DNA of 63,608 nucleotides, the filler included. It is 4 parts of 4 records of this genome, joined end to end, with 100 filler letters (N's around TTAATTAATTAA, not from the genome) between each part and the next. Parts side by side here need not be neighbours in the genome. Positions count along the whole stretch, not along the records: positions 1 to 21,259 come from SRR31156797_15796; 3 more parts are not named here. One strand, written 5' to 3'. Shown here in pieces: positions 3,057 to 57,975 of this stretch (within the stretch, counting starts at the first letter, position 1; every line of letters starts with the position of its first letter). The notes below the pieces were generated by a model, which was given only the letters and a program-made list of their open reading frames with translations, was not told the origin of the DNA and did no database searches. Made by a program: the position numbers and the translations under genes.

Positions 3057-3524
3057 TTATGTGGTTGTCATGAGAATATTGATCTGCTGATCGGTCATTT
3101 CCAGTCCGTGTTTAAAAATGTCCAGGGTCCGGTAAAAAACCCGGCGATTAATCCCTTGGGCCAGCACATTGTAGGTAAACAGGATCTGCCGTTTGTGGCC
3201 CCTGATCAGACGCCCCACCTTTAGTTTTTTATTGAGTAATGCCAGATCATCATCGTCCAGGAACTGGGCGCCGAATCGTCCCAGAGCGTAGGCTTGAAGG
3301 CTGAAACAGTCAATGGGGCCCATGGACAAAGGGATTCGGTAGAAAAATGCTGCCGCAAAAGAGAGGCCCATCTGGAAAACAAGAGATTCATCCCGATCCC
3401 GGATAATATATTCCCGCTCCTCCATCCAGGATTTGATCTTTTGTTTCAGTATGGGCGAGGGGGGTTCTTCCGGGAGGAAATTGATAAAGGCCCCGTTTTC
3501 CGATTCAGGGGGAAGAAATTCCAT
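3057..3524 (-). CDS. Hypothetical protein, possibly YbjN-like fold
   Basis: 155-aa ORF with a GAGGT RBS-like site that fills the gap between two real genes. The fold guess is weak. Confidence 0.5.
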   Translation of the reverse strand: MEFLPPESENGAFINFLPEEPPSPILKQKIKSWMEEREYIIRDRDESLVFQMGLSFAAAFFYRIPLSMGPIDCFSLQAYALGRFGAQFLDDDDLALLNKKLKVGRLIRGHKRQILFTYNVLAQGINRRVFYRTLDIFKHGLEMTDQQINILMTTT

Positions 3525-3670: not shown

Positions 3671-3746
3671 TTCGGTGCGGTGTGAGTCCATATGGAAATC
3701 AGAAAATTAAGGTTCGTGAAAATTGCCCCTTTCCGATTGTCAATCA

Positions 3747-4526
3747 ATGTCCGTAAGCAAAGAGAAGCTGGACCAGCTCTTTTCCATGTACCAGAGTCGT
3801 CAATGGGTTCATCCGGATCCCCTTGAATTTCTGTATCTTTATGGTGAAGACAGGGACCGGGAAATTGTGGGGTTCATCGCTTCTTCTCTGGCTTACGGCC
3901 GTGTGGCCCAGATTCTCAAAAGTGTATCCGCCGTGCTTGAAAAAATGGGATCTTCCCCCCGGGACTTTGTCCTTTCCTCCACTGATAGAAAACTTGAAAA
4001 AGCTTTTGCGGGGTTTAAACACCGTTTTACCACATCAAAAGACCTTATCAATCTTCTGCGTGGCGCCAGATCGGTATGTAAACACTTTGGTTCCCTTCAC
4101 AACTGTTTTATGGAAGCCCACCGGGAACACCAGGACACGGTTTATGAGGCACTCTCTTTTCTGGTGGACGAACTGGGAAAGGCAAACGGCCGAACCTCCA
4201 ATAGCCTTTTACCGTTGCCGGAAAGGGGGAGTGCCTGCAAGAGGTTGCATCTTTTTCTGCGATGGATGGTTCGGAAAGATGACGTGGATCCGGGCGGCTG
4301 GGATGATGTAAGCCCCAGCAAGCTCATTGTGCCGCTGGATATCCACATGCACCGTACCTGTTCGCTGCTGGGTATGACCGCCAGAAAACAGGGGGATTTG
4401 AAAACGGCCATGGAAATTACACGTGCCTTCAGACAACTGGCGCCGGAAGATCCCGTCAAATACGATTTCGTACTTACCCGGCTCGGCATCCGTAAGGATT
4501 GTGATCCGGGGGAACTGTTTGGATGA
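3747..4526 (+). CDS. TIGR02757 / DUF2400 family protein
   Basis: Motifs 'DPLEF', 'DREIVGFIASSLAYGRV', 'SACKRLHLFLRWMVRKDDVDPGGW', 'LIVPLDIH', 'DPVKYDF'. Confidence 0.9.
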   Translation: MSVSKEKLDQLFSMYQSRQWVHPDPLEFLYLYGEDRDREIVGFIASSLAYGRVAQILKSVSAVLEKMGSSPRDFVLSSTDRKLEKAFAGFKHRFTTSKDLINLLRGARSVCKHFGSLHNCFMEAHREHQDTVYEALSFLVDELGKANGRTSNSLLPLPERGSACKRLHLFLRWMVRKDDVDPGGWDDVSPSKLIVPLDIHMHRTCSLLGMTARKQGDLKTAMEITRAFRQLAPEDPVKYDFVLTRLGIRKDCDPGELFG

Positions 4527-4554: not shown

Positions 4555-4594
4555 AAAAAAACAGAGAAGATGTTGACGGTTCGAACCGTCAACA
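4555..4594 (-). terminator. Probable intrinsic terminator of the minus-strand transcript
   Basis: Perfect 24-bp palindrome TGTTGACGGTTCGAACCGTCAACA (4571-4594), followed on the minus strand by TCTTCTCTGTTTTTTT, between convergent genes. Confidence 0.65.
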
Positions 4595-4676: not shown

Positions 4677-5567
4677 TTAAAGGGCCCTGGACCACTCCGG
4701 TCGAAGATCAATGTTTCCCGCCAGGGCGTTGTCGATCTGGGCCAGGGCCTCCTCCTTGCCCCGGGGCAACCGGGCCTTGATGGGCAGGTAATTGGAAGCG
4801 TGATTGGAAAAAAACATGCCCCTTGAAAGATTGGTGTGGGCGATCATCTCACGCAGTTCAACCAGGGTTTCCCGTTCGTTGAGCAGATGAAACTCGCCCC
4901 TTTTGTATTCATCATGAAGCGGTGTCCCCGGAATCAACATGACGGTGAGGGCCCCCACATAATTGGGATCCATGGCGCTCAAAACTTCGCCGGTGGCCCT
5001 GGCATGTTGAAGGGAAAGTTTCGGATCATTTCCCGCAATACCCAGGAGCACCGTAACGGAGAGCTTGATACCCGCTTCCCGAACCTTCCGGCCCATGTTG
5101 ATGAGATTTTGGGCCGTTGATCCCTTTCGAATCTTTTTGAGCAGGGGGTCATCGCCCGTTTCCACACCCAGATAGAGAATCCCCAGCCCGTTTTCCCGAA
5201 GGGCCTTCAATTCATCCGGACTTTTCATCTTGATCCCCTTGGCGTTTGCGTAGGCTCCCACCCGTTTCACCCAGGGGAGGTGTTCGCGGATCCGGTCCAG
5301 TATCCACATGAGCCGTTTCTGGGGAATGATCAGGGCATCCCCGTCCATGAGGAACACCCGGTCCTGCCGTTTCATGACCTTCGACGCAAATAAAATATCC
5401 GACAGGATGATTTTATCGTCCTTGATGGTAAATCGTTTATCGTTGTAGGTCCCGCAAAAGGTGCACTTGTTATGGGAACATCCCAAGGTCACCTGGAGCA
5501 GGATGCTGTAGGCTTCGCTGGGAGGCCTGATGCAGTTGCCGTCGTAATGCATCCCGTCACTTTCCAT
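4677..5567 (-). CDS. Radical SAM protein, uncharacterised 'RPPSEA' family
   Basis: CxxxCxxC motif 'GCSHNKCTFC' after 'IRPPSEAYSILLQVT'; also 'VFLMDGDAL' and 'FFSNHASNYL'. Start is probably 5567 or 5552. Confidence 0.9.
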   Translation of the reverse strand: MESDGMHYDGNCIRPPSEAYSILLQVTLGCSHNKCTFCGTYNDKRFTIKDDKIILSDILFASKVMKRQDRVFLMDGDALIIPQKRLMWILDRIREHLPWVKRVGAYANAKGIKMKSPDELKALRENGLGILYLGVETGDDPLLKKIRKGSTAQNLINMGRKVREAGIKLSVTVLLGIAGNDPKLSLQHARATGEVLSAMDPNYVGALTVMLIPGTPLHDEYKRGEFHLLNERETLVELREMIAHTNLSRGMFFSNHASNYLPIKARLPRGKEEALAQIDNALAGNIDLRPEWSRAL

Positions 5568-5587
5568 TTTTCCTTTTCTCCTGTATC

Positions 5588-5654
5588 GGGCAGGCACGGG
5601 GGCCTGCCCCTATGTTTTACTTGATGGCGCGCGGACACACCGGTCCGCACCTAT
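5588..5654 (-). repeat. Two REP-like palindromic elements
   Basis: Minus strand reads ATAGGTGCGGACCGGTGTGTCCGC and ATAGGGGCAGGCCCCCGTGCCTGCCC. Each is a GTAG-like head plus a GC-rich hairpin, resembling GTAG-class REPs. Confidence 0.55.
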
Positions 5655-6661
5655 CGGCGGCGCCAATGTACCTTCATGGCTTTTAGGGGATTTTTTGCCG
5701 AATCCATGACCGCCGTCGGTTCGAACCCGCTGTGGAGCATGCAGTGGGTACAGCGGGGATCACGACCCACGCCGTATTTTGACCAGTCCGTTTTTTTCAT
5801 CAACTCCCGATAGGTGGGTTCATAGCCGTCATCAATGAGATAGCAGGGCGTCTGCCAGCCAAAAATGTTCCGCGTGGGATTCCCCCAGGGGGTACAGGCG
5901 TAATCCTGCTTCCCTTCCAGAAAATCGAGATAGAGGCTGCTGTGATTAAACCGCCAGCTTTTATCTTTTCCCATGAGGAAGATGGATTGGAACAGCTCGA
6001 CGGCCTCATTCCGATTGAAAAAATGTTCCTGGTCCGGGGCGTTTTCATAGTTGAAAGCTGACGCAACGGTCATGGCTTCCACATCAAGAGACGTGAGCAG
6101 GTCAAACAATTCTCCCGCGCTTTTGGCGGTTTCCCCCTTGAAGAGGGTCGTATTGGTGGTGACCCGAAACCCCTGGGAAACCAGGAGCCGAATGGCGTTT
6201 ACCGCATTTTCAAATACGCCTTTACGGCCCACCCTTGCGTCATGACGCCCGTTGAGGGCATCCAGATGCACATTGAATGTGAGGTAAGGGCTGGGTTCAA
6301 ATTCATGAATTCGCTTTTGAAGCAGAAGCGCGTTGGTGCACAGGTAAACAAATTTTTTCCGGGACACAAAGCCCTTTACAATCTCGTCAATTTGCGAATG
6401 CAGGAGGGGCTCCCCTCCCGCGATGGAGACCACGGGGGCGCCGCATTCTTCCACTGCGGCCAAGCATTCCCCAGGGCTCATCCGTTGTTTAAGAATTTCC
6501 TCCGGGTAAGAGATCTTTCCACACCCTTTACAACGCAGGTTACAGTGAAAAAGAGGCTCCAGCATCAGTACCAGGGGAAACCGTCCGTTGCCGTTTGAAC
6601 TGAATCGTTTTCTGCCAACATAAGCGCCGATACGCGCCTTTTGAATTAGTGGTATTCCCAA
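5651..6661 (-). CDS. hpnH: Adenosyl-hopene transferase HpnH (hopanoid radical SAM enzyme)
   Basis: 'RFPLVLMLEPLFHCNLRCKGCGKI', 'ECGAPVVSIAGGEPLLH', 'CTPWGNPTRNIFGWQTPCY', 'DPRCTHCMLHSGFEPTAV'. TTG start with an AAGGAG RBS. Confidence 0.93.
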   Translation of the reverse strand: MGIPLIQKARIGAYVGRKRFSSNGNGRFPLVLMLEPLFHCNLRCKGCGKISYPEEILKQRMSPGECLAAVEECGAPVVSIAGGEPLLHSQIDEIVKGFVSRKKFVYLCTNALLLQKRIHEFEPSPYLTFNVHLDALNGRHDARVGRKGVFENAVNAIRLLVSQGFRVTTNTTLFKGETAKSAGELFDLLTSLDVEAMTVASAFNYENAPDQEHFFNRNEAVELFQSIFLMGKDKSWRFNHSSLYLDFLEGKQDYACTPWGNPTRNIFGWQTPCYLIDDGYEPTYRELMKKTDWSKYGVGRDPRCTHCMLHSGFEPTAVMDSAKNPLKAMKVHWRRR

Positions 6662-6717: not shown

Positions 6718-7470
6718 TTAATTATTTTGTGTTTCCATTTCACACATCCGTTTCATTAGATCCAGGGCCTGTTTCCACGGCTTTTCCCACTCATTACAAG
6801 GGGGTATGCGGATCAAAATCTGTCGTAACTGGTCACAGGCCGATCCCTGTTCTTCGTCTTCCAGGTAAGCCTCCGCGAGCCCCAGGCGATTTTCAACAAA
6901 ATCGGGGTCCTGTAAAACAGCCCGCCGGTAATGGACAATGGCCTTTTCCAGGTCCCCGATGCTCACGGGGGGGTCGGGAGCCCGCAGATAGAGTTCTCCC
7001 AGCATTCGGTCAGGGCCCCCATGATCCAGTTCAGGTTTTAAACGGGATGCCTCAATTGCACCGTGTTGGATGACCGGTACCAGGCTCAATCCTTTCAGGG
7101 GTCGGTTTTCAGCTTCCAGCCCGGCCAGGTAAGCGGCCAGGTAGTGGGCCGTACCGTTTTTCGGATCACGGATAATGGCTGCTTCGGCAATTTTTCGCCC
7201 ATTTACGGCATCTTCCAGCCGTAGTGATTTATCTTTTCCTCTCCGGGCCAGAACCGCATAACAGCGGACAGCCTGTAATGCCGCTCCCGGGTCCTGTCCG
7301 CTTTGCCGTTCCCACAAAAGCGCTTGGTTTCGGGTACAGGGTGACCACAAAGAAGACTCTTCCGTGGCCCCGGTTATTCCGTCCACAACCGTCCCATGCC
7401 GACCCTCCAGCGGGGCGCAGGCTATCAGGAACAGGAGGATAAGCCACAGACTATGGCATATAACACGCAT
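6718..7470 (-). CDS. TPR-containing lipoprotein, TRAP T-component / BstC-like
   Basis: Signal and lipobox MRVICHSLWLILLFLIAC; helical TPR-like motifs 'AHYLAAYLAG', 'PELDHGGPDRMLGELYLRAP..PVSIGDLEKA..HYRRAV..DPDFVENRLGLAEAY'. The start overlaps the upstream gene's stop. Confidence 0.7.
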   Translation of the reverse strand: MRVICHSLWLILLFLIACAPLEGRHGTVVDGITGATEESSLWSPCTRNQALLWERQSGQDPGAALQAVRCYAVLARRGKDKSLRLEDAVNGRKIAEAAIIRDPKNGTAHYLAAYLAGLEAENRPLKGLSLVPVIQHGAIEASRLKPELDHGGPDRMLGELYLRAPDPPVSIGDLEKAIVHYRRAVLQDPDFVENRLGLAEAYLEDEEQGSACDQLRQILIRIPPCNEWEKPWKQALDLMKRMCEMETQNN

Positions 7471-8290
7471 TATTATTTTCGCCCAGCCGGAATTGCAACA
7501 GATCCGGATCGGTGTCTCCAAAACCGTCGGTCTGCAGAAGGGCCAGGAGTTTTGAGGCATTTTCATCGTCTTTCATTCCCTGAAGCACACCGGCCAGTTT
7601 CTTCATGGTTTCATTGGGTGTTCCAAACCAGACCACCGGACTGGTGGGCAGATTCCGGGAAGTGTGTATGACCTTGATCTTCTTGCCGACAGACATGGTT
7701 CTAACGGTTTCATACTGGACCCGATCCAGCACGACCCCCGTGATTTTTCCTTTGACCAAAGAGCGTAAGGACCGCAGGGGACGAAAGGTCCCCTCAAGTG
7801 TGAAGGGGAGCCGGTCCGGAAGAAGTTCAAACAGCAGGCAGGAAACCGCTTTTTTTTCAAAGAGCATGTTTCCGAGAATTTCTCCCTTCAGGGATTGCCA
7901 GTCTGAAACCGCATTTTTGGGGCCCATCAGCCGCCACACGTCTTTTTTAAATCCCCCGGGCCTGGTGGCGGCCATGGGTATCATCCGGAAACCGGTGGCG
8001 TGTTGGGCGTAAACCCCCAGCTGCACAATGCCCCATGCCGGAGGCGAGGCTTCCAGGAAAGCCAGAGCCGGTTCCAGCTTATTGAAATACCGGCCTTTAA
8101 TCGTTACGTCAGCACCTATCTTCTGCTGAATATAATGGGCCAGGGCATCCATTACGGGAAGGGCTTCCGCGTCCGTTCCCGGCTGGCCCGGCTGGATCAC
8201 AACGAAATCCAGATTGCCTGCCTCAGCTTGCCCGGTTACAGCCCGGAGAAGCATGGCAAAAAGGAAAAGCATTGTTCCATATTTTTTCAT
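7451..8290 (-). CDS. Periplasmic substrate-binding protein, PhnD/phosphonate-binding-like (BstB-like)
   Basis: Signal peptide MKKYGTMLFLFAMLLRAVTGQAEA; 'DFVVIQPGQPGTDAEALPVMDALAHYI', 'LRSLVKGKITGVVLD', 'VIHTSRNLPTSPVVWF' fit a type-2 periplasmic binding fold. The family call is by eye. Confidence 0.65.
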   Translation of the reverse strand: MKKYGTMLFLFAMLLRAVTGQAEAGNLDFVVIQPGQPGTDAEALPVMDALAHYIQQKIGADVTIKGRYFNKLEPALAFLEASPPAWGIVQLGVYAQHATGFRMIPMAATRPGGFKKDVWRLMGPKNAVSDWQSLKGEILGNMLFEKKAVSCLLFELLPDRLPFTLEGTFRPLRSLRSLVKGKITGVVLDRVQYETVRTMSVGKKIKVIHTSRNLPTSPVVWFGTPNETMKKLAGVLQGMKDDENASKLLALLQTDGFGDTDPDLLQFRLGENNNACYMP

Positions 8291-8304
8291 GGCAACCCTT
8301 ATTA

Positions 8305-8339
8305 GCTCATAGCTCATGGCTCATGGCTCATGGCTCTTG
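8305..8339. repeat. Heptamer tandem repeat, (GCTCATG)x5, imperfect
   Basis: GCTCATA GCTCATG GCTCATG GCTCATG GCTCTTG, between hpnN and the binding-protein gene. Confidence 0.9.
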
Positions 8340-8374
8340 GTCAAAAAGAACCGTACAATTGCATGTTTCCGGCG

Positions 8375-11116
8375 TCAATCCTTTCCGTTCTTGGTAAAGC
8401 GGCCCATCAGCTTCAGGATGGGCGGCAACGCAAGCAGACACGCCAGCATGCCCATCAGAGACCCCAGCACCATGATGGCGCCCAAGCTGGCCATGCCCCG
8501 GTGGTGTGCAAATAAAAGCCCGCCGAAACCGATCATGGTTGTGGTAAAACTGAGCGCCACGGCGGTGGGGGTTCCCGTATAAAAGAGCCCGCCAACCCCC
8601 GACTGGGCGGGGCGATCCGCGAGAATGGGCTCGATTTCCCGCCATCTGGCCAGGAAATGCACCCCCCCGTCCACTCCGATGGCGATGAGGATGGGGATGG
8701 CAAAAAAATTGGCCAGATTAAAATGAAGTCCCAGCCATCCCATCAACTCCAGCAGCCATAACATACTTATGCCCAAAGGTAAAATGGTAAGCATCACATA
8801 TCGGAATGAACGGGCATAAACCCATAATATCACCGATACCAGCAGAATGGTCAGTGCCGCTGCATGGAGAAAGGTGCGGTGCATCAACCTCGCCGATTCA
8901 TACACCCCCACGGGCACCCCGCTCACATGGGGATCCACTTTTCGCAAATCGGTCAGGAAATGCCCCAGTGCATCGAAATCCCATATATCTCCCTTGGGAC
9001 TGACTTTTATCTGGTAGCTCCCATCCTTGCCCACATAGAGATCCTTGAGGCCGGGGGGAAGATTCTTGGGTGTTACCGATTTGGCCCCGAGCCATCGTTT
9101 CAATTGTTCGAGGGATGTGATGATATCCCGACCCAGTGCCGACTCCAGACCCTTGAGGCGGCTGATCCGACCCGGATATTGCTCAAGTTGCATAATGGCG
9201 GAATCCACGGCTTCCATATTTTTTTCCACCAGGGAAAGTTCTTCTTTCGCCCCGGCGACAAACAGCTTTTCCGCCAGGTTTTCCAGGGATTCGGACACAT
9301 GTAGAAGCGCTGCAATAAATTGTTTGTTGTTGAGGGGATGCTTTCGGGGAAAGTGGTCCGGGATATTGAGGAGGGCCCTGGCCGCCTTTCGGTATTCTGC
9401 TGATTTTTGTTCCTGTTGGTCCGGGATAAAATCGAGGACACTTTCCACCCGGCCTACGGAGGGGATGGCCATGAGCTTCTTCGTCAACCCTTTGACCTGT
9501 TCCAGGGTCGCGGCCGAAATGATGGCATACCAGGTGGATTCGTCGGCGGTTTCAACCATAATCCTTTCATATTCCACGGATTCCAGCCCTCGGGCCTGAA
9601 GTTCCAGCAGATTGTAGTTGAAGCGTACCTTGAAAAGCCCGGGGAGGGCCAGAAGGGTGATGGCCAGCAGAAAACCCAGCACCGCTTTCGGGTGTTTAAA
9701 AAACCTCTCCAGCAACGGCATGGCCGTGATCCTGGGCATTGAAGAAGGGAAAAGTTTCTTTTTTCCCGCTTGCAGCAGCATGGCGGGAAGCACAACCATC
9801 ATGGATATCAGGCAAAAAAGTACGCCGGTACCGCCGATGAGCCCCAGTTGCGCCAGCCCGATGAAATCGGACCCCAAGACCGAATAGAAGGCACAGACCG
9901 ATGTAACGGCGCCCAGGATTACACCGGGGCCGGTTCTAAGCAAAGCGACCCGAACGCTGTCCTCCACCCCAAGCCCTTTACCGTGTGCTTCCACATAGCG
10001 CATGACCACGTGAATGCCGAAATCCACACCGATACCCACCAGCACCAGGGCAAAAATCACGGACAGCAGATTCAATTCCCCCACGGTGATGGTGGCAAAC
10101 CCGAAACTCCAGGCCATGGCCATGGCCAGTGAAAGGAGCACCAGGAAGGGCCTTAGCCATCCATGAAGGACAATCATGAATAATATTCCCACAAACAGCA
10201 CCGCGATGATTGCCGCCCGCGTCATGTCCCGGTCCGTGGTCTCCATCTCGTCCGCCTGAAGGGCGGGCCTTCCGGTGAGCCCCACCGCCAGTCCGGGAAA
10301 TTCCGCGCGGGTGGTTTCAAGGGCCTGGCGCACCGCCGCCAGCGGTTTGCCGACCACGTCCAAGGCGCTGAAATCCTTGATGGGGAGGATACGCATGACC
10401 AGCAGTCGGCCGGAAGCGGTGAAAAAATACTCGCCGCGACCCTGATTGAGATCAAACAGAGTATAATCGCTCTCCTTTCCCGACAACGCGTCATTCACGT
10501 TATCCAGGAGGTTTCCAAGGAGTCCGAGGGCCTGCACCAGCATCGCCGGGTCCATATCAACGGCCGACCCCTGCCCTCGGTTCTCCGTCCCCTCTCCTCC
10601 GAGGAACCCGGCCACCATCTCAAAAAAACCGGCCAGGGGTCCGCCGTCCCGAACCCATCGGTCAATGAAAGGCGCCAGGAAAAAGAGGGTTCCGGAGAGG
10701 ATTTTTGCTTCTTCAGGGGAGGCGAAAAGCAACGCGCCGTCCCCCAGATCCCGTGGGGAAATACGGTAGTAGACCGCTTGAATAAGGTCCGTGTGGTCAG
10801 CAAGACGGACATTGAGGCTTTCGGCGAACTCAGTGGCCCTTTTTTTTTCCTCCTCGGTCCCGTTTGTCTGAATGACCACAAAGAGATATTCCTGGTCTCC
10901 AAAATTTTCCAGGTGTTCCAGATATCTTTTTTGAAAGGGGACTGATGGCGACACCAGGGAGTCCTGGTTGCTGTTCAGGTGCAGAAAAAAGACGGAAACC
11001 AGGGTGGAAATAAGTGCCAGTGCCAGTCCTGAAACAATGAGTCCGCCGGGATGATGGCGGACCAGGCGCCAAAGCGCGTTCAGAACATACTCCCGTTTTT
11101 TGGAGGGGTGCTTCAT
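8375..11116 (-). CDS. hpnN: MMPL/RND-family hopanoid transporter HpnN
   Basis: Two MMPL transmembrane repeats ('VGLTGRPALQADE', 'GELNLLSVIFALVLVGIGVDFGIH', 'FNLANFFAIPILIAIGVDGGVHF') and 'RFNYNLLELQARGLESV'. The ATG at 11116 overlaps the hpnO stop (ATGA). Flanked by hpnO and hpnH. Confidence 0.85.
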   Translation of the reverse strand: MKHPSKKREYVLNALWRLVRHHPGGLIVSGLALALISTLVSVFFLHLNSNQDSLVSPSVPFQKRYLEHLENFGDQEYLFVVIQTNGTEEEKKRATEFAESLNVRLADHTDLIQAVYYRISPRDLGDGALLFASPEEAKILSGTLFFLAPFIDRWVRDGGPLAGFFEMVAGFLGGEGTENRGQGSAVDMDPAMLVQALGLLGNLLDNVNDALSGKESDYTLFDLNQGRGEYFFTASGRLLVMRILPIKDFSALDVVGKPLAAVRQALETTRAEFPGLAVGLTGRPALQADEMETTDRDMTRAAIIAVLFVGILFMIVLHGWLRPFLVLLSLAMAMAWSFGFATITVGELNLLSVIFALVLVGIGVDFGIHVVMRYVEAHGKGLGVEDSVRVALLRTGPGVILGAVTSVCAFYSVLGSDFIGLAQLGLIGGTGVLFCLISMMVVLPAMLLQAGKKKLFPSSMPRITAMPLLERFFKHPKAVLGFLLAITLLALPGLFKVRFNYNLLELQARGLESVEYERIMVETADESTWYAIISAATLEQVKGLTKKLMAIPSVGRVESVLDFIPDQQEQKSAEYRKAARALLNIPDHFPRKHPLNNKQFIAALLHVSESLENLAEKLFVAGAKEELSLVEKNMEAVDSAIMQLEQYPGRISRLKGLESALGRDIITSLEQLKRWLGAKSVTPKNLPPGLKDLYVGKDGSYQIKVSPKGDIWDFDALGHFLTDLRKVDPHVSGVPVGVYESARLMHRTFLHAAALTILLVSVILWVYARSFRYVMLTILPLGISMLWLLELMGWLGLHFNLANFFAIPILIAIGVDGGVHFLARWREIEPILADRPAQSGVGGLFYTGTPTAVALSFTTTMIGFGGLLFAHHRGMASLGAIMVLGSLMGMLACLLALPPILKLMGRFTKNGKD

Positions 11117-12489
11117 GCTGTTCTGGCCGTTCTCAGTCCCAGGTTTTTGACCGTTGTCCATGCGGATCCGGGAAATTTGTGCGCATCCTTCAAAACGTCA
11201 TCCAGGGCTTTCAGGAAATGATCTGCCTCGGACTGGTCCATCACCAGAGGCGGAAGAATTTTCACCGTATCCAGACCATGCCCGGCTACCTGGGTCAGGA
11301 TGTGGTGCTTCTCCAACAGGGGCATGGTAATCATCTGGCAAAACAGATCCACGTTCATTTTGTGAAGCAGCTTCCATCCCGTCTTCAGGGACAGGGAGGC
11401 CGGCTTTCCGAATTGAATGCCGATCATGAGCCCTTTTGCGCGAATGGTATGAATTAATTCATACCTTTCAGCCAGTTCACGGAGCCCTTTTTCAAGATAG
11501 GCGCCCATACGGGCTGACTGTTGAACCAGGTTTTCCTGTTCAATGACGTGCAACGCGGCAAGGCCCGCTGCCATGGCCAGATCATTCTGGCCAAAGGTAT
11601 TGGAATGGGCAAAACACCGTTCCATGCTGTCAAAAACTCTTCCATGGATGTTACGCCGCGTGATGACGGCACCCACGGGGACGTATCCGCCGGAAAGGGA
11701 TTTGGAGATAACCAGCAGATCGGGAACCACATCCCAGTGGTTCACGGCGAACATGCGGCCCGTTCGACCCAGGCCCGTTTGAACCTCGTCCGCGATCAGC
11801 AATGCGCCATACCGGTCGCAAAGTCTTCTTGCGCCCGGAAGGTATTCCGGATCCGGTATAAACACCCCTTTCCCCTGAATGGGCTCCACGATAAAAGCAG
11901 CCGCATCCCCCTTGGAAAGGGCCATCGCGAGGGCATCCAGATCATTAAAGGGAACGGGTATACAGTTGGGCAGAAGCGGTTCATTGCGTCCCCGGAATTC
12001 CTCGTTTCCGTTTACCGAAAGGGCGCCCAGGGTCAGTCCGTGAAAGGCCCGGTCACAGTAGATGATTTTGGTTTTTCCGGTGGCCTGACGTGCCATCTTG
12101 AGGGCCCCTTCCACCCCTTCGGTTCCCGAATTGGTGAAAAAGACCGCCTCCAGATCCCCCGGTGCCAGATCGGCCAGTGCCTCGGCCAGAAGGCCGGCGA
12201 GAATCCCCACATCCATCTGAACCATACTGGCCGGGGCCATATCGATGACATCTTTTAAGACCCGGGCAACCAGAGGATGATTTCGTCCGATGTTGAAAAC
12301 ACCGAATCCGGCCAGGAAGTCAAGCACCTCCCGGCCCTGCTCATCCATGAGGCGGCTTCCGCCGGCCCGGGTATAATTTCGATTGTAACCGATCACCTCC
12401 AGCACCCGTACCAACTGGGGGTTCACATGGCGGCGATGCAGCGTATACGTCTCACTGAGACGATTTTTTATAAGGGATGCAATATCCAT
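11113..12489 (-). CDS. hpnO: Class-III PLP aminotransferase HpnO (aminobacteriohopanetriol synthase)
   Basis: 'HVNPQLVRVL..IGY', 'DFLAGFGVFNIGRNHP', 'AAFIVEPIQGKGV', 'ADEVQTGLGRTG', 'SKSLSGGYVPVGAV', 'LFCQMIT.PL..KH.IL.QVAGH'; hopanoid context. Confidence 0.88.
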   Translation of the reverse strand: MDIASLIKNRLSETYTLHRRHVNPQLVRVLEVIGYNRNYTRAGGSRLMDEQGREVLDFLAGFGVFNIGRNHPLVARVLKDVIDMAPASMVQMDVGILAGLLAEALADLAPGDLEAVFFTNSGTEGVEGALKMARQATGKTKIIYCDRAFHGLTLGALSVNGNEEFRGRNEPLLPNCIPVPFNDLDALAMALSKGDAAAFIVEPIQGKGVFIPDPEYLPGARRLCDRYGALLIADEVQTGLGRTGRMFAVNHWDVVPDLLVISKSLSGGYVPVGAVITRRNIHGRVFDSMERCFAHSNTFGQNDLAMAAGLAALHVIEQENLVQQSARMGAYLEKGLRELAERYELIHTIRAKGLMIGIQFGKPASLSLKTGWKLLHKMNVDLFCQMITMPLLEKHHILTQVAGHGLDTVKILPPLVMDQSEADHFLKALDDVLKDAHKFPGSAWTTVKNLGLRTARTA

Positions 12490-12565
12490 CAAGTTAACAG
12501 ATCCGCACGGCGAAATCCTAAAGGAAAACCCCGGCGGTAAAGTTCCTCTCTATTTTTTTGGGGAA

Positions 12566-12594
12566 AGTGTAGGAAAAGCAGCTGTCCGTGTCAA
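12566..12594 (-). promoter_or_regulatory. Putative sigma70 promoter of the hpnO operon
   Basis: Minus strand TTGACA-17 bp-TACACT, about 75 bp upstream of hpnO. Confidence 0.7.
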
Positions 12595-12662: not shown

Positions 12663-15044
12663 CTAAGGGTTCGGCGGAAGATTATGGAGACCTTCCGCGG
12701 ACCGGATATGCAGGTCCAGCTGTGGAAAGGATATTTCAATATTGTTTTCCCTGAAAATGCGATCGATGTGGTAACGTACCTCTGAATCGGCGTACCGGTC
12801 GGCCCAGCCCTTTATCCATACCCTCAAGGAAAAAACCAGGGTGCTGTCCCCGAAGTCAAGGAATCTGACTCTCGGCGGGGGACGGTCCAGCACCTTGCCA
12901 CTCTCTTTGGCGGCGGTAAGGAGCAATTCCGTCACCTTTTCCACATCGGATCCGTAGGCCACGCCGATTTTAATTTCCTGGCGATAGCGCCGGTCCGCGT
13001 GGCTCCAGTTGATCATTTTCTGGGATATGAGGAGGGAGTTGGGGACAAAAATAGTGGCCCCTGAAAACGCTTTTACCAGGGTATTGCGAATGGTCACTTT
13101 TCGAACATGCCCCCTGATGTTGTCGATCTCCACCAGGTCACCCGGCTGGATGCTTCTGCCGAACAGGAGGATCAATCCTCCGATGAAATTGTTTACGATG
13201 TTTTGCAATCCGAACCCAAGCCCCACGGAAAGGCCCCCGGCGATGACGGCCAGGTTTCTGAAGGAGAGGCCCAGAAGACCCAAGGTGGTCAGGGCGAACA
13301 GGGACCAGAGCACGTAGGTAACAATGGTATCCAGGGATTGCACCGAACCCGAGTCCAGATCCCGGTGGCGTTCCGGCAGTTTGGCCAGGGACGAACGTGC
13401 CAGGGCGATGCCGGCGCGGACCGCGAACATGAGCGAAAAAATGCAGAAGACGCGATAGATACTGAATGTGAATTGATCCCAACCCACACGGTAGCGGATG
13501 ACTTCCATGAAAAGCGATCCACCCCCCACAAAGATGAAAATCCAGGCAAAACTGGACAAGAGCAGGGTGAGAAAAATGAGTGGAAACCCCAGAGCCCCTG
13601 CCGGTTCGGCGGCATGAGAATCCGAAGCCTTTCTTCTGCGTTGCCAGCGGGATCCGATCCGTCCCAGTCCGGCGCTGAAAACCCTTGCCAGGCGAATATT
13701 CAATGATAACAGCAGCACCAGCATCCCCAGAAGAACCGACAGATAACCCCAGCCCAGAAGCGCCAGAAGCGCCAGCAGGGGCATGGCGCCAATCAGAAAG
13801 CCCCTGGATAGTTTGGCCCAACCTTGTTTTACGGTTTTGTCCCGGACATACCCCCCCAACAGGATCAGAAGCCAGAACGACCATACGGGAATGAAGGTTT
13901 CTTCAGGGATATGAAGGGATTCCAGCAAGATACAGGTGGATACGGCGGCCCACAACAGGACCAGGCGGTGGGGTTGGGAAACCGGGTCGGCGAAAAAATG
14001 ATGCCGTAGATTCCGGGAAAGGGAGATCAGGCCATAGACCAGAATGACCGTCACAACCGTTGAAAAAAATGCCGAGGGGAACAGCCCGGTGGAAGAAACC
14101 CCCAGTAGAATTCCTGTGCTGACGGCGAAACACAGAAGGAACGGAAATAACCGAATACGGTTCAGGCTTTCGAACCGCGCTCCCATCCGTTTCCTTAAAA
14201 ACAGGGACAGACCCAGGAATAGGAGGGAAAAGAGTGCCATTTTGGATATGAACACGGCCCATCCCATCCCCTTCAGACTGATGGGTTCCAGTAGATAAAT
14301 ACCGAAACGGGATGCCCATTTTCGAGCGGCATCCACTCCCGATAACCAGGCCCGGGCCGAAAAGAAACCGAGGGTTCGCCTCAATAAATGGGCTTTAAGG
14401 ACTTGATTGGATTCGTGCTCAATTTGAGCCTGGTCTTTTTTCAGAAGGAGAATGAAGGCGTCAGCGGCATCCATGCCTTTGGTCAGCTTGAGACTGAGGG
14501 GTTGAAGTTTGGCTTGGAGGGAGTTCAGATCCTTTAAATAGGCCTTTACCTTTAGCTGCATTTGAGATCCCAGTTCTTGAATGGGATTCCCTTCCTGCTT
14601 GAATTTGTGTGACAGGTCCGTCAAGTTCTCCATCTGTCTGGCGATGGCGGCTTTTTCCTGTTTAAAGGGTAGAATGAGCCGGTCGGTTTCACGTTCAAAC
14701 CAACCCAGGACACCCAAAATATCCCGCAACACAAGGGGGTTTCCGGATCGAAGGTTGAAGTAGAGCATGAGCTTTTCAAATCTGGATCTCAACAGGTAGA
14801 GGTGTTTCTGAAGGTTTGACAATCGATCCGGCAGCTTTGAAATGAGTTGGTCAACGGATTTGGAGGTTTCAACCAGTTCCTGGTGTTGCCGTTTCAGCAA
14901 CTCACCCCAACTGTCGGGTTCACCGGCCGCGGGACCACAGGCGCAAAGAGAAATCACCATCAGAATCGATATGATGAAACAAAAATATGCATACGCTTGA
15001 TTTAGAAGGATTTTTGGGACCGGTCCGGGTTTACGAAAAATCAT
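12663..15044 (-). CDS. Large MscS/MscK-family mechanosensitive channel
   Basis: C-terminal MscS core 'IAGGLSVGLGFGLQNIVNNFIGGLILLFGRSIQPGD', 'IFVPNS', 'IGVAYGSD', 'IEISFPQLDLH'; N-terminal coiled coil and several TM helices. Start uncertain. Confidence 0.9.
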   Translation of the reverse strand: MIFRKPGPVPKILLNQAYAYFCFIISILMVISLCACGPAAGEPDSWGELLKRQHQELVETSKSVDQLISKLPDRLSNLQKHLYLLRSRFEKLMLYFNLRSGNPLVLRDILGVLGWFERETDRLILPFKQEKAAIARQMENLTDLSHKFKQEGNPIQELGSQMQLKVKAYLKDLNSLQAKLQPLSLKLTKGMDAADAFILLLKKDQAQIEHESNQVLKAHLLRRTLGFFSARAWLSGVDAARKWASRFGIYLLEPISLKGMGWAVFISKMALFSLLFLGLSLFLRKRMGARFESLNRIRLFPFLLCFAVSTGILLGVSSTGLFPSAFFSTVVTVILVYGLISLSRNLRHHFFADPVSQPHRLVLLWAAVSTCILLESLHIPEETFIPVWSFWLLILLGGYVRDKTVKQGWAKLSRGFLIGAMPLLALLALLGWGYLSVLLGMLVLLLSLNIRLARVFSAGLGRIGSRWQRRRKASDSHAAEPAGALGFPLIFLTLLLSSFAWIFIFVGGGSLFMEVIRYRVGWDQFTFSIYRVFCIFSLMFAVRAGIALARSSLAKLPERHRDLDSGSVQSLDTIVTYVLWSLFALTTLGLLGLSFRNLAVIAGGLSVGLGFGLQNIVNNFIGGLILLFGRSIQPGDLVEIDNIRGHVRKVTIRNTLVKAFSGATIFVPNSLLISQKMINWSHADRRYRQEIKIGVAYGSDVEKVTELLLTAAKESGKVLDRPPPRVRFLDFGDSTLVFSLRVWIKGWADRYADSEVRYHIDRIFRENNIEISFPQLDLHIRSAEGLHNLPPNP

Positions 15045-47515: not shown

Positions 47516-48673
47516 ATGCAATCCACTCAATCACAACAGGCCAAAATACATAGGCTGCCCAACCAAAGCGAAGGCAACACAGTTAGGCTCAAAAGCTCGG
47601 GCGACTGGACCATAGATACGCTCCACGATGCTGCCCTGATTCTGGATGGGATTACCAAAACTTGTCATAATCTTCCTATCCAGTGGGATGTCTCAGGCAC
47701 AGGGCGCATTGATTCCGCGGGTATGCTGCTGTTTATCCGTACCTATGATGCGCTCAAGGCAAACCAATGCTCCATTGTTGTTTTAGGGGCAACCACTGAA
47801 CACAAAAAAATATATCAACTGCTGCGCAGGTATGCTCCCGGGCAACCGGACGTTAAACCTGCTTTTTTCTCTCGCCTATTGATGCCTTTAAACAGGGTAG
47901 GCAGAAGATTCGTTGCATTTCTCGCTGACTTGAAGGACTTTCTCGCCTTTACCGGGGAAAACTTTATCAACCTGCTGCTGGCAATAGTGAACCCACGTAC
48001 CATCCGCTTTGGCGCTATTGTGAAAAATATAGAAGAAGCCGGTGTAAGAGCAATGCCCATCGTGGCTCTGACCAGTTTTCTCATAGGGGTGGTCATAGCT
48101 TACCAGGGAGCAGTACAGCTGGAAAAATTTGGTGCCAATATCTTCATTGTGGACATGATAGCTCTATCAGTCACCAGGGAACTGTCCCCCCTGATAACAG
48201 CCATAGTCGTGGCAGGCCGAACCGGCTCTTCCTATACGGCTCAACTGGGGGTGATGAAGATAACGGAAGAGATAGATGCCATGCGCACTATGGGGTTTGA
48301 TCCTCACCGTTTTCTCGTTCTTCCCCGGATTTTTGCCCTGATCATTGCCCTGCCGCTGCTGATTTTTTTTGCAGATATAATTGGAATTGCGGCCGGTATG
48401 TTTATCTCACATGTACATCTCAACCTTTCCTATCCCGAGTTTATACATCGTCTACAGAAAGTGTTGTCGGTAAAACATGTGTGGGTAGGTATAGGTAAAG
48501 GACCGGTTTTCGCATGGCTAATTGCTACGGTGGGATGTTTTCGCGGGTTTCAAGTTTCTAAAAACACCGAAAGCATAGGACGCTACACCACCATCAGCGT
48601 GGTCAATGCAATTTTCCTAGTGATAGCCTGTGACGCATTTTTTTCCGTAATCTTTACGGAGCTTGGCATTTGA
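47516..48673 (+). CDS. mlaE: MlaE-family ABC permease with N-terminal STAS domain
   Basis: STAS 'IDSAG'; 'GVVIAYQG', 'RELSPLITAIVVAGRTGSS.TAQLG.MKITEEIDA'. Confidence 0.9.
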   Translation: MQSTQSQQAKIHRLPNQSEGNTVRLKSSGDWTIDTLHDAALILDGITKTCHNLPIQWDVSGTGRIDSAGMLLFIRTYDALKANQCSIVVLGATTEHKKIYQLLRRYAPGQPDVKPAFFSRLLMPLNRVGRRFVAFLADLKDFLAFTGENFINLLLAIVNPRTIRFGAIVKNIEEAGVRAMPIVALTSFLIGVVIAYQGAVQLEKFGANIFIVDMIALSVTRELSPLITAIVVAGRTGSSYTAQLGVMKITEEIDAMRTMGFDPHRFLVLPRIFALIIALPLLIFFADIIGIAAGMFISHVHLNLSYPEFIHRLQKVLSVKHVWVGIGKGPVFAWLIATVGCFRGFQVSKNTESIGRYTTISVVNAIFLVIACDAFFSVIFTELGI

Positions 48674-49437
48674 ACAACAATATTATCACAGTATCAGATA
48701 TCGTTACCCGATTCGGAACAAATGTGATCCATGAAGGCATCAGCCTGCGCGTGAATCGGGGTGAAATTTACGGCCTGTTGGGCGGCAGCGGTTCGGGAAA
48801 ATCGACCCTGCTCAAACAAATGATAATGCTTCTGCGCCCTGAGTCCGGAAAAATTACCCTTCTCGGGCACGATCTTATGACCATCAGCCGTAACGACGCG
48901 GCCTCCTTACGCCACTATTGGGGAGTACTTTTCCAGGGCGGTGCCCTCTACTCTTCACTCACCGTTGCAGAAAATGTGGCCATTAAGCTGCGGGAGTATA
49001 CAAATCTTCCTGAAGATATGATTAGAGATCTGGTGCAGATGAAGATAAAAATGGTTGGTCTTCCTCCAAATGCTGCCGTGCTCTATCCCGCTGAACTGAG
49101 CGGCGGCATGGTAAAACGTGCTGCGCTTGCGCGAGCACTGGTCATGGACCCCCAGCTGCTGTTTCTTGATGAACCCACGTCTGGCCTGGACCCAATCGGT
49201 GCCGAAGCATTTGACAATCTGATTATTGAACTGCGGGACATTCTGGATTTGACGGTGGTGATGGTCACCCACGATCTGGACACCATCTGGACCATTGTTG
49301 ATCGTTTTGCTGTATTGGGCGAAAAAAAAGTTATCGCAGAGGGCACTCTAAACGAAGTTGTGCAGGTCCCCCACCCTATTGTAAAACAATTCTTTGGTGG
49401 GCCCCGGGGGCAAATACGGAGCAGGGATGGAGAGTAA
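48670..49437 (+). CDS. mlaF: MlaF-family ABC ATP-binding protein
   Basis: 'GGSGSGKS', 'GVLFQGGAL', 'PAELSGGM.KRAALARAL', 'DEPTSGLDP'. Confidence 0.92.
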   Translation: MNNNIITVSDIVTRFGTNVIHEGISLRVNRGEIYGLLGGSGSGKSTLLKQMIMLLRPESGKITLLGHDLMTISRNDAASLRHYWGVLFQGGALYSSLTVAENVAIKLREYTNLPEDMIRDLVQMKIKMVGLPPNAAVLYPAELSGGMVKRAALARALVMDPQLLFLDEPTSGLDPIGAEAFDNLIIELRDILDLTVVMVTHDLDTIWTIVDRFAVLGEKKVIAEGTLNEVVQVPHPIVKQFFGGPRGQIRSRDGE

Positions 49438-50323
49438 AGTAAATTATACACTTGTCGGTTTATTTGTTGTCCTCATGTCAGCGGGACTGATAACCTTTGC
49501 CTACTGGCTAGGAAAACATGGGGGCAAACAGGAATATGACCTCTACCTTGTATATATGTCCGAATCTGTAGCAGGGTTAAGTACTGACGCTTCTGTTAAA
49601 TACAAGGGTGTTAATGTGGGCACAGTCGAACAGGTGGGTATAAATCCTCATAACTCTGAAGAGGTGGAACTCCGCTTACAAATTCTTCAGAACACCCCTA
49701 TTAAGACCGATACCACCGCACAATTAAAGTCTTTTGGCATCACAGGTCTGGCCTTTATAGAGCTCTCGGGCGGCAGCAATGATGCCCCGCTCCTAAAAAA
49801 CTCAGGCATTCCGGTCCCAACCATCCCGACAACCCCCTCCACCTTTACAAAGATGTATAGCTCCCTGGAACAACTTGTAGAGCAATCGACGCTGGCAATG
49901 GCCAAATTTGACAGAATACTCAGTGAAAACAACCTGGATAATATTACTGTCATACTTACCGAAACGAAATTACTTGTCAAAGATGTCAGGAGCCAGCTAC
50001 CTGGATTGCAAACTTTTATCGATAATGGGACAGCCGTAGAAAAACAGGTAACCAAGGCCTTTGAAAAAATGGCAAACGCCTCTGAAAGTGTACAAAAAAT
50101 GGCAGAAAGCCTCGAGCAAAACTATGCTGATCTTGGTCAAAACATGCGACAAGACGCCCAGCAGAGTCTTGAACTCCTCAATCAACTGCTGTACGACCTG
50201 GATATTCTTGCCAGAGACCTGCAGCACGCAACTCAAGCCATACAGGACAGCCCAAGCGACCTGCTGTTTAAACGCAGCCAGCAAAAACCTGGACCAGGGG
50301 AAAGGGAATATCATGAAAATTAA
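49427..50323 (+). CDS. mlaD: MlaD/MCE-domain protein with long helical tail
   Basis: 'MESKVNYTLVGLFV', 'ESVAGLS..ASVKYKGVNVG', 'GITGLAFIEL.GG'. Confidence 0.9.
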   Translation: MESKVNYTLVGLFVVLMSAGLITFAYWLGKHGGKQEYDLYLVYMSESVAGLSTDASVKYKGVNVGTVEQVGINPHNSEEVELRLQILQNTPIKTDTTAQLKSFGITGLAFIELSGGSNDAPLLKNSGIPVPTIPTTPSTFTKMYSSLEQLVEQSTLAMAKFDRILSENNLDNITVILTETKLLVKDVRSQLPGLQTFIDNGTAVEKQVTKAFEKMANASESVQKMAESLEQNYADLGQNMRQDAQQSLELLNQLLYDLDILARDLQHATQAIQDSPSDLLFKRSQQKPGPGEREYHEN

Positions 50324-50921
50324 CAGCATTCTACTCGCAATCCTGTTTTGCATACTTGCCAGCTGCAGCTTCCAGAAGATCCCTCCAAAAGATATCTATA
50401 CCATATCGCCTAATTTGGAGAAAAACAGCAGCTTCAGCACCGTGAAAAACAAGAACCGCCCCATAGTCAAACTGGCCCCGATTCGTGCGTCGCGGGCGTT
50501 TACCTCCACCAAGATTGTATACTCTACAACCAAGAATCAGCAAAACAGCTATGCCTACAGCCGTTGGAGTGATGCTCCGGTCAGATTGCTGCCCCTTCTC
50601 TTTCAAACAGCCCTTGAAGCAACCGGAAGTTTTGGAGCTGTAGTTGGCTCTCCATCCACGGCAAAAGCTGACTTTCTGCTCGAAAGTACCCTCACTGACT
50701 TTAGCCATCATATTCATGACAATAACACCTCAGAAGGAGTTATCGGTATACGTTTTCACTTAATAAACACTGGAACAAAAACAATAACAGCCGCCAAGGA
50801 GGTTCGCTCTCAAGTTCCTTCCTCCACACCCAATGCCGGAGATGGGGTTGCCGCGCTCAACCAGGCTGCGGATACTGTTGCTCATGAACTTGCCGCATGG
50901 CTTGGGGGGATGCAGCTCTAA
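50313..50921 (+). CDS. ABC-type transport auxiliary lipoprotein (PqiC-like)
   Basis: Lipobox 'ILASC'; 'YAYSRWSDAP', 'LESTLTDF'; follows mlaD. Confidence 0.82.
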   Translation: MKINSILLAILFCILASCSFQKIPPKDIYTISPNLEKNSSFSTVKNKNRPIVKLAPIRASRAFTSTKIVYSTTKNQQNSYAYSRWSDAPVRLLPLLFQTALEATGSFGAVVGSPSTAKADFLLESTLTDFSHHIHDNNTSEGVIGIRFHLINTGTKTITAAKEVRSQVPSSTPNAGDGVAALNQAADTVAHELAAWLGGMQL

Positions 50922-51027
50922 TCAGGCGGCAGCGAAGCTTCTTTCTTCTCAATATCGATACCTTGCCTGCAAAAAAAAAGAGCTAACGAAAAAGGATAGA
51001 TTGTGGATCGCTGCGCTCTCACAATCT

Positions 51028-51127
51028 NNNNNNNNNNNNNNNNNNNNNNNNNNNNNNNNNNNNNNNNNNNNTTAATTAATTAANNNNNNNNNNNNNNNNN
51101 NNNNNNNNNNNNNNNNNNNNNNNNNNN
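51028..51127. other. Artificial contig linker
   Basis: 44 N + TTAATTAATTAA + 44 N. Confidence 0.99.
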
Positions 51128-51541
51128 CTCGACAAATATTATAAAGGAGAAACTTCGTTAGAAGATGAAAATAACCTTAAAACTCAGATTTTAACTGAGG
51201 GAAACAGTTCTTCGGAAAAAGATATTTTTAATTATTTCGAAAATGAAAGTTACATTCCCGATGATTTGGAAGACCAAATATTTGCTGCTGTAAAGAAAAA
51301 CGAAAAAAAACAAAAATCGATAAAAACAAACATTTTCCGGTGGTCGTCGGCAGCAGCTGTAATTCTTATTCTTTTAAGCATTTATATCGATTTCAGAAGT
51401 TCAGAAAACAGAAGACTGGAAAATGAATTTTTTGTGATGGAACAAGCTTTATTTCAGGTTTCAGAAAGTATTCAACCACAGGAACAGGAAGAAATGCTGG
51501 TACTTTGGGTAGATGATAATGTTGAAATAATTATAAACTAA
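51128..51541 (+). CDS. Bacteroidota anti-sigma-factor-like single-pass membrane protein, 5' truncated
   Basis: Frame is open from the contig start: LDKYYKGETSLEDE (the 'KY..GETS.EEE' N-terminal motif), TM 'WSSAAAVILILL'; lies upstream of DUF4252. Confidence 0.65.
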   Translation, partial: LDKYYKGETSLEDENNLKTQILTEGNSSSEKDIFNYFENESYIPDDLEDQIFAAVKKNEKKQKSIKTNIFRWSSAAAVILILLSIYIDFRSSENRRLENEFFVMEQALFQVSESIQPQEQEEMLVLWVDDNVEIIIN

Positions 51542-51553
51542 AAAACAGATACA

Positions 51554-52516: not shown

Positions 52517-52536
52517 AGAGGTTTATTTAAATCTCT

Positions 52537-56541: not shown

Positions 56542-56779
56542 GGTTAATTAATTCTGGTCTTATAACAAATATATTAAATATAATATCACGAATAAAAATA
56601 TATACGAAAAACATTTTACCCGAACCACTTCGGAATAAAACACTGATTTTCAACTGGTTGAAAAGACTGGAATTAATAAGACACTATATTAATAAATAAA
56701 AACCCGCCATTTATATAAAAATCTACGTTCAACAAAAATCCGTATGCATTGTTGAATTATAAACTTTTTCTAAAAAAAC

Positions 56780-57469: not shown

Positions 57470-57516
57470 CATCATTTTTATTTGACATTTTATTTGAAAG
57501 CAACCTTTTCAGTTAA

Positions 57517-57975
57517 ATGATCATCTTAAAAAAAATGCAAATGAAATCCATAAAATCATTCAGTTTTATTCTAGCTGTTTTTAGTTTATTAATTCTATTC
57601 ACATTGCCTTTTCAAAGTTGCCAACCCGACAATGAAGAGAACGAAAACGACGGTACTTGCGACAGTTGTGCTATTGTTTACAAACCAAACATTTATATTT
57701 ATCCGGAAGAGGAAATGGAGTTAACCGTTACTTTGAATTTTCCAAAAGGTGGTAATGTAATTACTTCAATTCCTGAATATAATAACGGATGGAATGTATC
57801 TGTTGAAACAAATGGCTGGATTAACGACAGTTTTTACTATTTATTTTACGAAAGCCAACAGCCTGATATTTGGCAAGAAACCGAAGGATGGTTAGTTGAA
57901 AAAAACCAGTTGGAATCTTTCTTTACAGAAAATTTAACGGCATATGGTTTTGCCGGAAGAGAAATTCAGGATTTT
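57517..57975 (+). CDS. Hypothetical lipoprotein ('KPNIYIYP' family), 3' truncated
   Basis: Lipobox-like 'FQSC'; 'KPNIYIYP', 'SIPEYNNGWNV', 'YLFYE'. The start may be a downstream Met. Confidence 0.7.

Follow-up and report, generated by a model that had tools for sequence, protein, structure and literature searches.

Within a 63,608-nt stretch of DNA joined from four sequence records (hereafter, the window), three adjacent genes encode distant relatives of the bacterial sterol transporter BstABC in the hopanoid operon of a sulfate-reducer-type bacterium, which suggests a route of hopanoids to the outer membrane. Their products are an HpnN-like inner-membrane pump of the resistance-nodulation-division (RND, MMPL) type, a BstB-like periplasmic binding protein and a BstC-like tetratricopeptide repeat (TPR) lipoprotein, and they are linked to BstABC and to hopanoids by homology, predicted folds, targeting signals and a conserved gene order beside hopanoid genes. 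BstABC itself is known from Methylococcus capsulatus, with solved structures 7T1M and 7T1S (Zhai et al., eLife 2024, PMC10942540), and in the text available to us of two publications (PMC10942540, PMC11713862) such a trio is described only beside sterol genes in methanotrophs.

Relatives of BstABC and HpnN in a hopanoid gene string

The three genes belong to a string of seven genes, all in the same orientation on the minus strand from 15044 to 4677 (Table 1), five of them with the boundaries given in a first-pass annotation of the letters alone. That annotation had proposed a co-oriented order of five genes (aminotransferase, pump, binding protein, TPR protein and HpnH) with two overlapping junctions, a binding protein with a signal peptide, a TPR protein with a lipobox, and an overall likeness of the trio to BstABC, all of which were borne out. 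Indeed, the tetranucleotide ATGA at 11113-11116 is common to the stop codon of the aminotransferase gene and the start codon of the RND gene, and the TPR gene starts at 7470, 20 bases within the binding-protein gene, whose end is at 7451. HpnH scored above its curated cut-off (TIGR03470, 515 bits, cut-off 225).

The closest solved structures of the pump were those of HpnN (6WU0 and 5KHN, E 1e-64). HpnN TIGR03480 was also its top NCBIfam model, with 538 bits (cut-off 752), and it scored 375 bits on the second HpnN model, NF052374 (cut-off 1100), and 270 bits on BstA NF045600 (cut-off 1400). Alignment with HpnN revealed identical residues opposite D344 and T818, which we take to be the transmembrane proton-relay residues of the Burkholderia multivorans protein. 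The HpnN proteins of Rhodopseudomonas palustris and B. multivorans (5KHN, 5KHS, 6WU0) are the nearest characterised relatives of this pump, which is likewise encoded among hopanoid genes, with HpnH in the same string, and keeps the equivalents of both residues; unlike them, it falls under both HpnN cut-offs and is accompanied by BstB-like and BstC-like partners, not by HpnM and HpnS. The pumps of ten loci from other genomes (see below) scored 527-551 bits on TIGR03480, 341-373 on NF052374 and 266-332 on BstA, in all cases under the cut-off. This pattern fits the separate Desulfobacterota clade of HpnN noted in the available text of the first version of a recent preprint (Lawrence et al., bioRxiv 2025-26, PMC12324291).

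The binding protein begins with a basic and then a hydrophobic stretch that ends in A-E-A, a typical signal peptide. BstB NF045601 was its sole NCBIfam match (76 bits, 2.4e-21, cut-off 350), and BstB 7T1M its sole match among the sequences of solved structures (E 4.7e-14). We built a structure model on a 70-sequence alignment (mean predicted local distance difference test score, pLDDT, 93.7) and compared it with the PDB using Foldseek. BstB 7T1M ranked first (E 2.2e-20, template modelling (TM) scores 0.74/0.80), and ArrX, AioX, PtxB and PhnD occupied ranks below it. Sequence identity was 22-26% in this comparison and in that of the TPR protein with BstC.

The lipobox of the TPR protein reads L-I-A-C. 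Its top NCBIfam match was BstC NF045602 (80 bits, 2.5e-22, cut-off 350), and its closest solved relative by sequence was BstC 7T1S (E 7e-15). Similarly, 7T1S ranked first in the Foldseek search against the PDB (E 8e-8, TM 0.60/0.63) with a model built on a 59-sequence alignment (mean pLDDT 85.2), in which a low-confidence linker, residues 16-36, separates the lipobox from the helical domain; after BstC came the TPR lipid-transfer domain of PTPIP51 and two TPAT proteins, with TatT lower. The motif GGPxRxLGxLYLxAP is common to the TPR protein and BstC, and its named positions are invariant in the 59 aligned sequences, at least 90% of which keep the lipobox cysteine (Cys18); several further cysteines are invariant. 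A search for a start codon, a basic residue, a hydrophobic run and a lipobox recognised lipoprotein signals in 46 of 56 locus homologues of the TPR protein, none of the 46 with Asp at position +2. In Escherichia coli, Asp at +2 retains lipoproteins in the inner membrane; if this rule also holds in the phyla considered here, a +2 residue other than Asp points to the outer membrane. Precomputed Pfam assignments of TPR homologues were often PF21033, named RMD1-3 in the ESM Atlas output.

To place the binding protein within its family, we searched a sequence library with it and recovered 332 clusters (50% identity) at E <= 1e-3. Among the best 150 of the 332 family representatives, 49 had a BstB match at E <= 1e-30, a threshold that none of the other NCBIfam models reached, and one representative, P0477, passed the BstB cut-off (408 bits). 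A FastTree phylogeny was calculated from 142 rows, that is, the window's protein, 14 locus proteins and those 127 of the best 150 representatives that were 240-335 aa long (23 fell outside this range); its supports are less reliable than those of a full likelihood search and its root is arbitrary. The 15 hopanoid-linked binding proteins fell within one 28-row clade (support 99), far from true BstB, whose own clade has 4 rows (support 98) and belongs to another group, of 94 rows. Given this separation, the hopanoid-linked proteins are not sisters of BstB but make up their own branch of a large BstB-like family, most of which is unannotated. Among look-alikes from the ESM Atlas, taken as leads only, the nearest named clusters were 'BstB family' clusters and RMD1-3/TatT-type TPR clusters of Acidobacteriota and Myxococcota.

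The correspondence with BstABC extends to organisation. Both systems combine three kinds of component in one and the same order: a pump of the MMPL/RND type, then a periplasmic binding protein with the PhnD fold, then a lipoprotein with TPRs. In each, the components are encoded by adjacent and co-oriented genes within an operon for the biosynthesis of a polycyclic triterpenoid, and BstB and BstC are both the nearest solved folds and the top sequence matches of the two small proteins. In contrast to BstABC, the trio described here has hopanoid genes as neighbours, not osc, smo and sdmA, and its hosts are anaerobe-type Desulfobacterota, not aerobic methanotrophs. A similarity cluster of 13 BstC sequences reported for the sterol system includes Deltaproteobacteria, according to the available part of PMC10942540. 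The all-helical TPR fold class is also shared by the T-component TPR lipoproteins TatT and TPAT (3U64, 8G52, 8G53) and by eukaryotic PTPIP51 (7CC7), with fold matches weaker than that of BstC (E 1e-5 to 3e-3; Foldseek ranks 3-5 and 14). TatT homologues bind long-chain fatty acids, as stated in the accessible part of a review (PMC11713862). We considered and rejected a TRAP-T (TatT) import system: unlike TatT, which is partnered by a DctP/Q/M importer, the TPR gene adjoins no DctQ/M gene, and the window's TRAP (tripartite ATP-independent periplasmic) transporter genes lie at 27.1-30.1 kb.

Recurrence of the gene order and its hopanoid setting

To learn how often this arrangement occurs in other organisms, we scanned genomes, one for each species, using 14 aligned binding-protein sequences as seed, and obtained 62 loci. 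The scan rests on one binding-protein peptide pattern and samples this clade only; a 44-sequence alignment was also tried as seed and discarded, as it offered no stretch conserved enough. Nearly all loci were from Desulfobacterota, comprising Desulfatiglandales-like bacteria, strain NaphS2, Syntrophobacteraceae, Desulfuromonadales/Pelobacter and Maridesulfovibrio/Desulfovibrio (Desulfovibrionaceae); the others were one metagenome-assembled genome (MAG) of Methylophilaceae and one labelled Pedobacter.

Neighbours were counted by tblastn with the window's proteins, in testable loci only. The RND gene lay within 500 bases 5' of the binding-protein gene, on the same strand, in 57 of 61 loci, the misses being L011 (scaffold gap), L012, L049 and the fragmented L062, and the TPR gene was directly 3' of the binding-protein gene in 56 of 57 (the miss was L018). 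HpnH was encoded within 6 kb in 38 of 47 loci, in 31 of them on the same strand and within 2 kb, and an aminotransferase homologue preceded the pump gene directly in 35 of 47. Since it recurs in related genomes, the arrangement is not due to chance. The Methylophilaceae MAG (L047) harbors the same aminotransferase-pump-binding protein-TPR-HpnH string, possibly as a result of gene transfer or of incorrect binning, and its pump had the highest BstA score tested (332 bits). The locus titled Pedobacter sp. (L031) is almost identical in gene order and coordinates to the Pelobacter loci L032 and L034, and its label or binning seems doubtful.

The wider gene content of these loci was inspected with NCBIfam scans of 132 open reading frames (ORFs) from 12 loci at E <= 1e-50, followed by a rescan at E <= 1e-15 of 75 of the 79 unmatched ORFs plus 6 ORFs of L033 (81 in all; 13 loci overall). 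Squalene-hopene cyclase (SHC, TIGR01507) was identified in L019 and L033, with 655 and 792 bits (cut-off 431), and the oxidosqualene cyclase model gave only 242 bits on these cyclases (cut-off 851). HpnA was found in L014 and L033 (TIGR03466, 493-505 bits), HpnB in L010 and L026, HpnG-like genes in L019, L037 and L051 (147-163 bits, under the cut-off of 187) and IspH in several of the scanned loci. Across loci, tblastn detected SHC-like genes in four, HpnA-like in eight and HpnB-like in nine, with HpnA directly 3' of the TPR gene in L011, L013, L014 and L016. The HpnA proteins of L014 and L033 also scored ~232 bits on the model of SdmB (sterol demethylase), whose gene stands in the same operon as bstABC in Methylococcus, as the available text of PMC10942540 has it; in this respect, too, the operons for hopanoids and for sterols run parallel.

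Conversely, the NCBIfam scans of the 13 loci yielded neither oxidosqualene cyclase nor sdmA, no sterol gene (osc, smo, sdmA/B) was present in the window or in the scanned ORFs of the 13 loci, and families of the HpnM and VacJ/MlaA types were found neither in the window nor in these loci. The first-pass annotation had called for a comparison with the BstB and BstC structures and for a survey of the trio beside hpn versus osc/smo genes. Both came out in its favour: homologues of the two small proteins flank HpnN-like RND genes, HpnH, SHC, HpnA, HpnB and HpnG-like genes lie nearby, and no oxidosqualene cyclase turned up in the scanned loci.

Its further suggestion that this trafficking route was undescribed is in line with the full-text literature that we searched (subscription journals lie outside its scope), which held no paper describing the arrangement and none on HpnN and hopanoids in Desulfovibrio. 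The nearest proposal concerns HpnM/HpnS and HpnT, candidate hopanoid shuttles that the preprint cited above, in its available text, confines to Alpha- and Gammaproteobacteria (PMC12324291). As in our case, a periplasmic carrier and an outer-membrane lipoprotein discovered through gene neighbourhoods are proposed there to work with HpnN; unlike the PhnD-fold and TPR proteins reported here, those candidates have MlaC-like, MlaA-like and lipocalin-like folds, which bear no relation to the PhnD and TPR folds. The method of that study discarded domains present in <5% of neighbouring genes. In the portions of the preprint at hand, 'Bst' and 'tetratricopeptide' appear in neither version, 'phosphonate' and 'TPR' do not appear in the first, and 'substrate-binding' and 'sterol transport' do not appear in the latest (March 2026).

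A putative hopanoid relay and competing explanations

How hopanoids pass across the periplasm is an open question, and HpnN is the sole component tested. Most likely, a hopanoid operon has either gained or retained a Bst-like trio. We consider it probable, with moderate confidence, that its products form a Bst-type relay spanning the envelope from the inner membrane through the periplasm to the outer membrane and carrying (amino)hopanoids. The proton-driven, HpnN-like RND pump would take hopanoids out of the inner membrane, the soluble BstB-like protein would ferry the lipid over the periplasm in a largely apolar pocket, and the BstC-like TPR lipoprotein, presumably lipid-anchored in the outer membrane, would accept it. 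The cargo would probably be C35 bacteriohopanepolyols, among them amino forms to whose synthesis the aminotransferase and HpnH, presumably co-transcribed with the trio, would contribute; indeed, the fixed position of the class-III aminotransferase and HpnH in the string suggests a C35, possibly amino, bacteriohopanepolyol. Whereas the homology, predicted folds, targeting signals and gene order are shown, this cargo, the direction of transport, lipid binding, and the hand-over and contacts between the proteins are inferred, as would be any order of descent of the sterol and hopanoid systems.

Several observations weigh against such a relay. The three proteins score far under the curated cut-offs for BstA/B/C (270, 76 and 80 bits versus 1400, 350 and 350) and, for the pump, HpnN, so function is not transferable by orthology; on their sequences, they are to be regarded as distant relatives of BstA/B/C and HpnN and not as orthologues. 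According to the available part of PMC10942540, 19 residues line the sterol-tail cavity of BstB and 15 the cavity of BstC. Mapped by hand through pairwise alignments and derived numbering offsets, which is uncertain at 22-26% identity, 7 of the 19 are identical and 13 of the 19 apolar in the binding protein, and 5 of the 15 are identical in the TPR protein, with 6 conservative changes. The sterol-binding Glu86 of BstC aligns with Arg76 of the TPR protein, and Tyr120 of BstB with Trp119 of the binding protein, a Trp found in 12 of 14 aligned sequences. This mapping is compatible with an apolar pocket that would have a different head-group environment. HpnH is not nearby in 9 of the 47 testable loci, mostly of Syntrophobacteraceae. 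No SHC gene lies in the window, so hopanoid synthesis by the host itself is presumed. Finally, the survey describes the surroundings of this clade, not whether every HpnN-like pump of Desulfobacterota has such partners.

Three other explanations deserve consideration. It is unlikely that the cargo is a non-hopanoid amphiphile made with the neighbouring aminotransferase, such as an amino lipid or a polyamine-linked lipid, with the tie to hpnH being mere operon neighbourhood. The core of aminotransferase, RND pump, binding protein and TPR protein is kept in Syntrophobacteraceae loci that lack HpnH within 6 kb, and the top models of the aminotransferase are PigE and putrescine aminotransferase, with no HpnO-specific model among its matches, but HpnH, SHC, HpnA, HpnB or HpnG-like genes adjoin this core across several orders, the pump is nearest to HpnN, and both helpers are nearest to binders of a polycyclic triterpenoid. 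Rather unlikely, too, is that the trio transports hopanoids, or some other lipid of the envelope, from the outer to the inner membrane, or serves in turnover and not in export. The sequences contain nothing that fixes the direction, and TatT and the TPAT proteins, TPR relatives of solved structure (Foldseek ranks 4, 5 and 14), belong to import systems, as far as the available text of PMC11713862 goes; however, the accessible parts of PMC10942540, PMC11713862 and PMC12324291 describe or propose export toward the outer membrane by HpnN and BstA, and an import permease of the DctQ/M type is missing next to the TPR gene.

Very improbable is an ordinary solute binder of the phosphonate/phosphite type accompanied by a TPR protein acting as a general scaffold, both functionally unrelated to the pump. 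The Pfam family of the binding protein is Phosphonate-bd, public records call homologues 'phosphate/phosphite/phosphonate ABC transporter substrate-binding protein', and ArrX, AioX, PtxB and PhnD follow BstB in the fold search. Yet the Pfam alignment is confined to residues 182-272 and reaches 35 bits, the binding protein matched none of the PhnD-type models in NCBIfam, and BstB was the sole model matched at E <= 1e-30, by 49 of the 150 representatives. No gene for an ATP-binding cassette (ABC) permease or ATPase is adjacent to the binding-protein gene, which is flanked instead by RND and TPR genes both here and in nearly all testable loci (57/61 and 56/57); we therefore rejected this assignment.

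A broader version of the relay can be put forward only tentatively. The trio might be an old general machine that moves polycyclic triterpenoids to the outer membrane, its hopanoid (Desulfobacterota) and sterol (methanotroph) versions being two branches of one ancestral operon, maybe with an HpnA/SdmB-type gene, and other family members serving further lipids in other phyla. The trio, and not HpnM/S/T, could then be the missing periplasmic leg in Desulfobacterota, possibly tuned to amino-bacteriohopanepolyols because the aminotransferase is tightly linked.

The locus offers concrete, testable candidates for Desulfobacterota, a phylum relevant to the hopanoid biomarkers of anoxic sediments, and for the first time connects, at the level of genomes, the transport of sterols in bacteria with that of hopanoids. 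The folds of BstB and BstC are not sterol-specific inventions of methanotrophs but represent branches of larger families, and at least one branch is tied to hopanoid synthesis. This widens the set of proteins to screen as lipid carriers and makes sterol- and hopanoid-preferring pockets comparable structurally.

Other features of the gene string and the window

Table 1. Genes and sequence elements of the hopanoid gene string.
Feature	Position	Strand	Basis
MscK-like channel	12663-15044	-	Pfam and NCBIfam scans
Sigma-70-like promoter match 5' of the aminotransferase gene	12566-12594	-	TTGACA, 17-base spacer, TACACT; 10/12
Class-III aminotransferase, hpnO-like, first gene of the module	11113-12492	-	Pfam Aminotran_3, E 4e-94
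HpnN-like RND (MMPL) inner-membrane transporter, 913 aa	8375-11116	-	HpnN TIGR03480, 538 bits
7-base tandem repeat, 5.1 copies	8305-8340		Tandem-repeat search
BstB-like periplasmic substrate-binding protein, cleavable signal peptide, 279 aa	7451-8290	-	NCBIfam BstB, 76 bits
BstC-like TPR lipoprotein, 250 aa	6718-7470	-	Best NCBIfam match BstC, 80 bits
HpnH, adenosyl-hopene transferase (begins synthesis of the C35 hopanoid side chain)	5651-6661	-	TIGR03470
Radical SAM protein, 3' of HpnH	4677-5597	-	Pfam Radical_SAM; weak HpnJ-core match
Terminator-like hairpin after the last co-oriented gene	4571-4594	-	10-pair stem, consensus match only

The single sigma70-like promoter that the first-pass annotation had placed upstream of the module was recovered as a 10/12 site at 12594-12566, but its weight as a signal was not sustained: the region contains 11 promoter-like sites versus 7.1 +/- 2.5 expected from shuffles, that is, no excess and weak support, and the terminator consensus match is likewise of a frequency not above shuffles. 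The pump gene and the binding-protein gene are separated by an 84-base spacer, much of it made up of the tandem repeat.

The aminotransferase was assigned from its class-III family and gene position; its top NCBIfam models, PigE and putrescine aminotransferase, were each under the cut-off, and no HpnO-specific model was among its Pfam and NCBIfam matches. The InterPro entry for the hopanoid aminotransferase is not specific, as noted in the available text of PMC12324291. At the other end of the string, the radical SAM (S-adenosylmethionine) protein matched HpnJ at 51 bits over model positions 201-392 of 472. Homologues 71-94% identical lie 3' of HpnH in 19 of the 62 loci, and this protein may be an unrecognised hopanoid side-chain enzyme. 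In the nearest loci, the radical SAM protein is 91-94% identical, as compared with 83-87% for HpnH.

Two further genes adjoin the cluster, a TIGR02757/DUF2400 gene at 3723-4526 on the plus strand and a 155-aa ORF without family match at 3057-3524 on the minus strand, and in the Desulfatiglandales-like loci nearest to this one both are found in the same place. Elsewhere in the window there was no gene for oxidosqualene cyclase or for proteins of the MlaC or MlaA type. A MlaE-MlaF-MlaD-type lipid ABC transporter with an ABC_trans_aux lipoprotein gene is encoded at 47516-50921 on the plus strand, with no MlaC/MlaA gene nearby. The stretch 50000-58000 is low in G+C (33-39%, versus 41-56% elsewhere in the window) and encodes a 1334-aa hybrid histidine kinase (52537-56541, minus strand) along with ORFs that matched no family, and possibly represents an acquired island.

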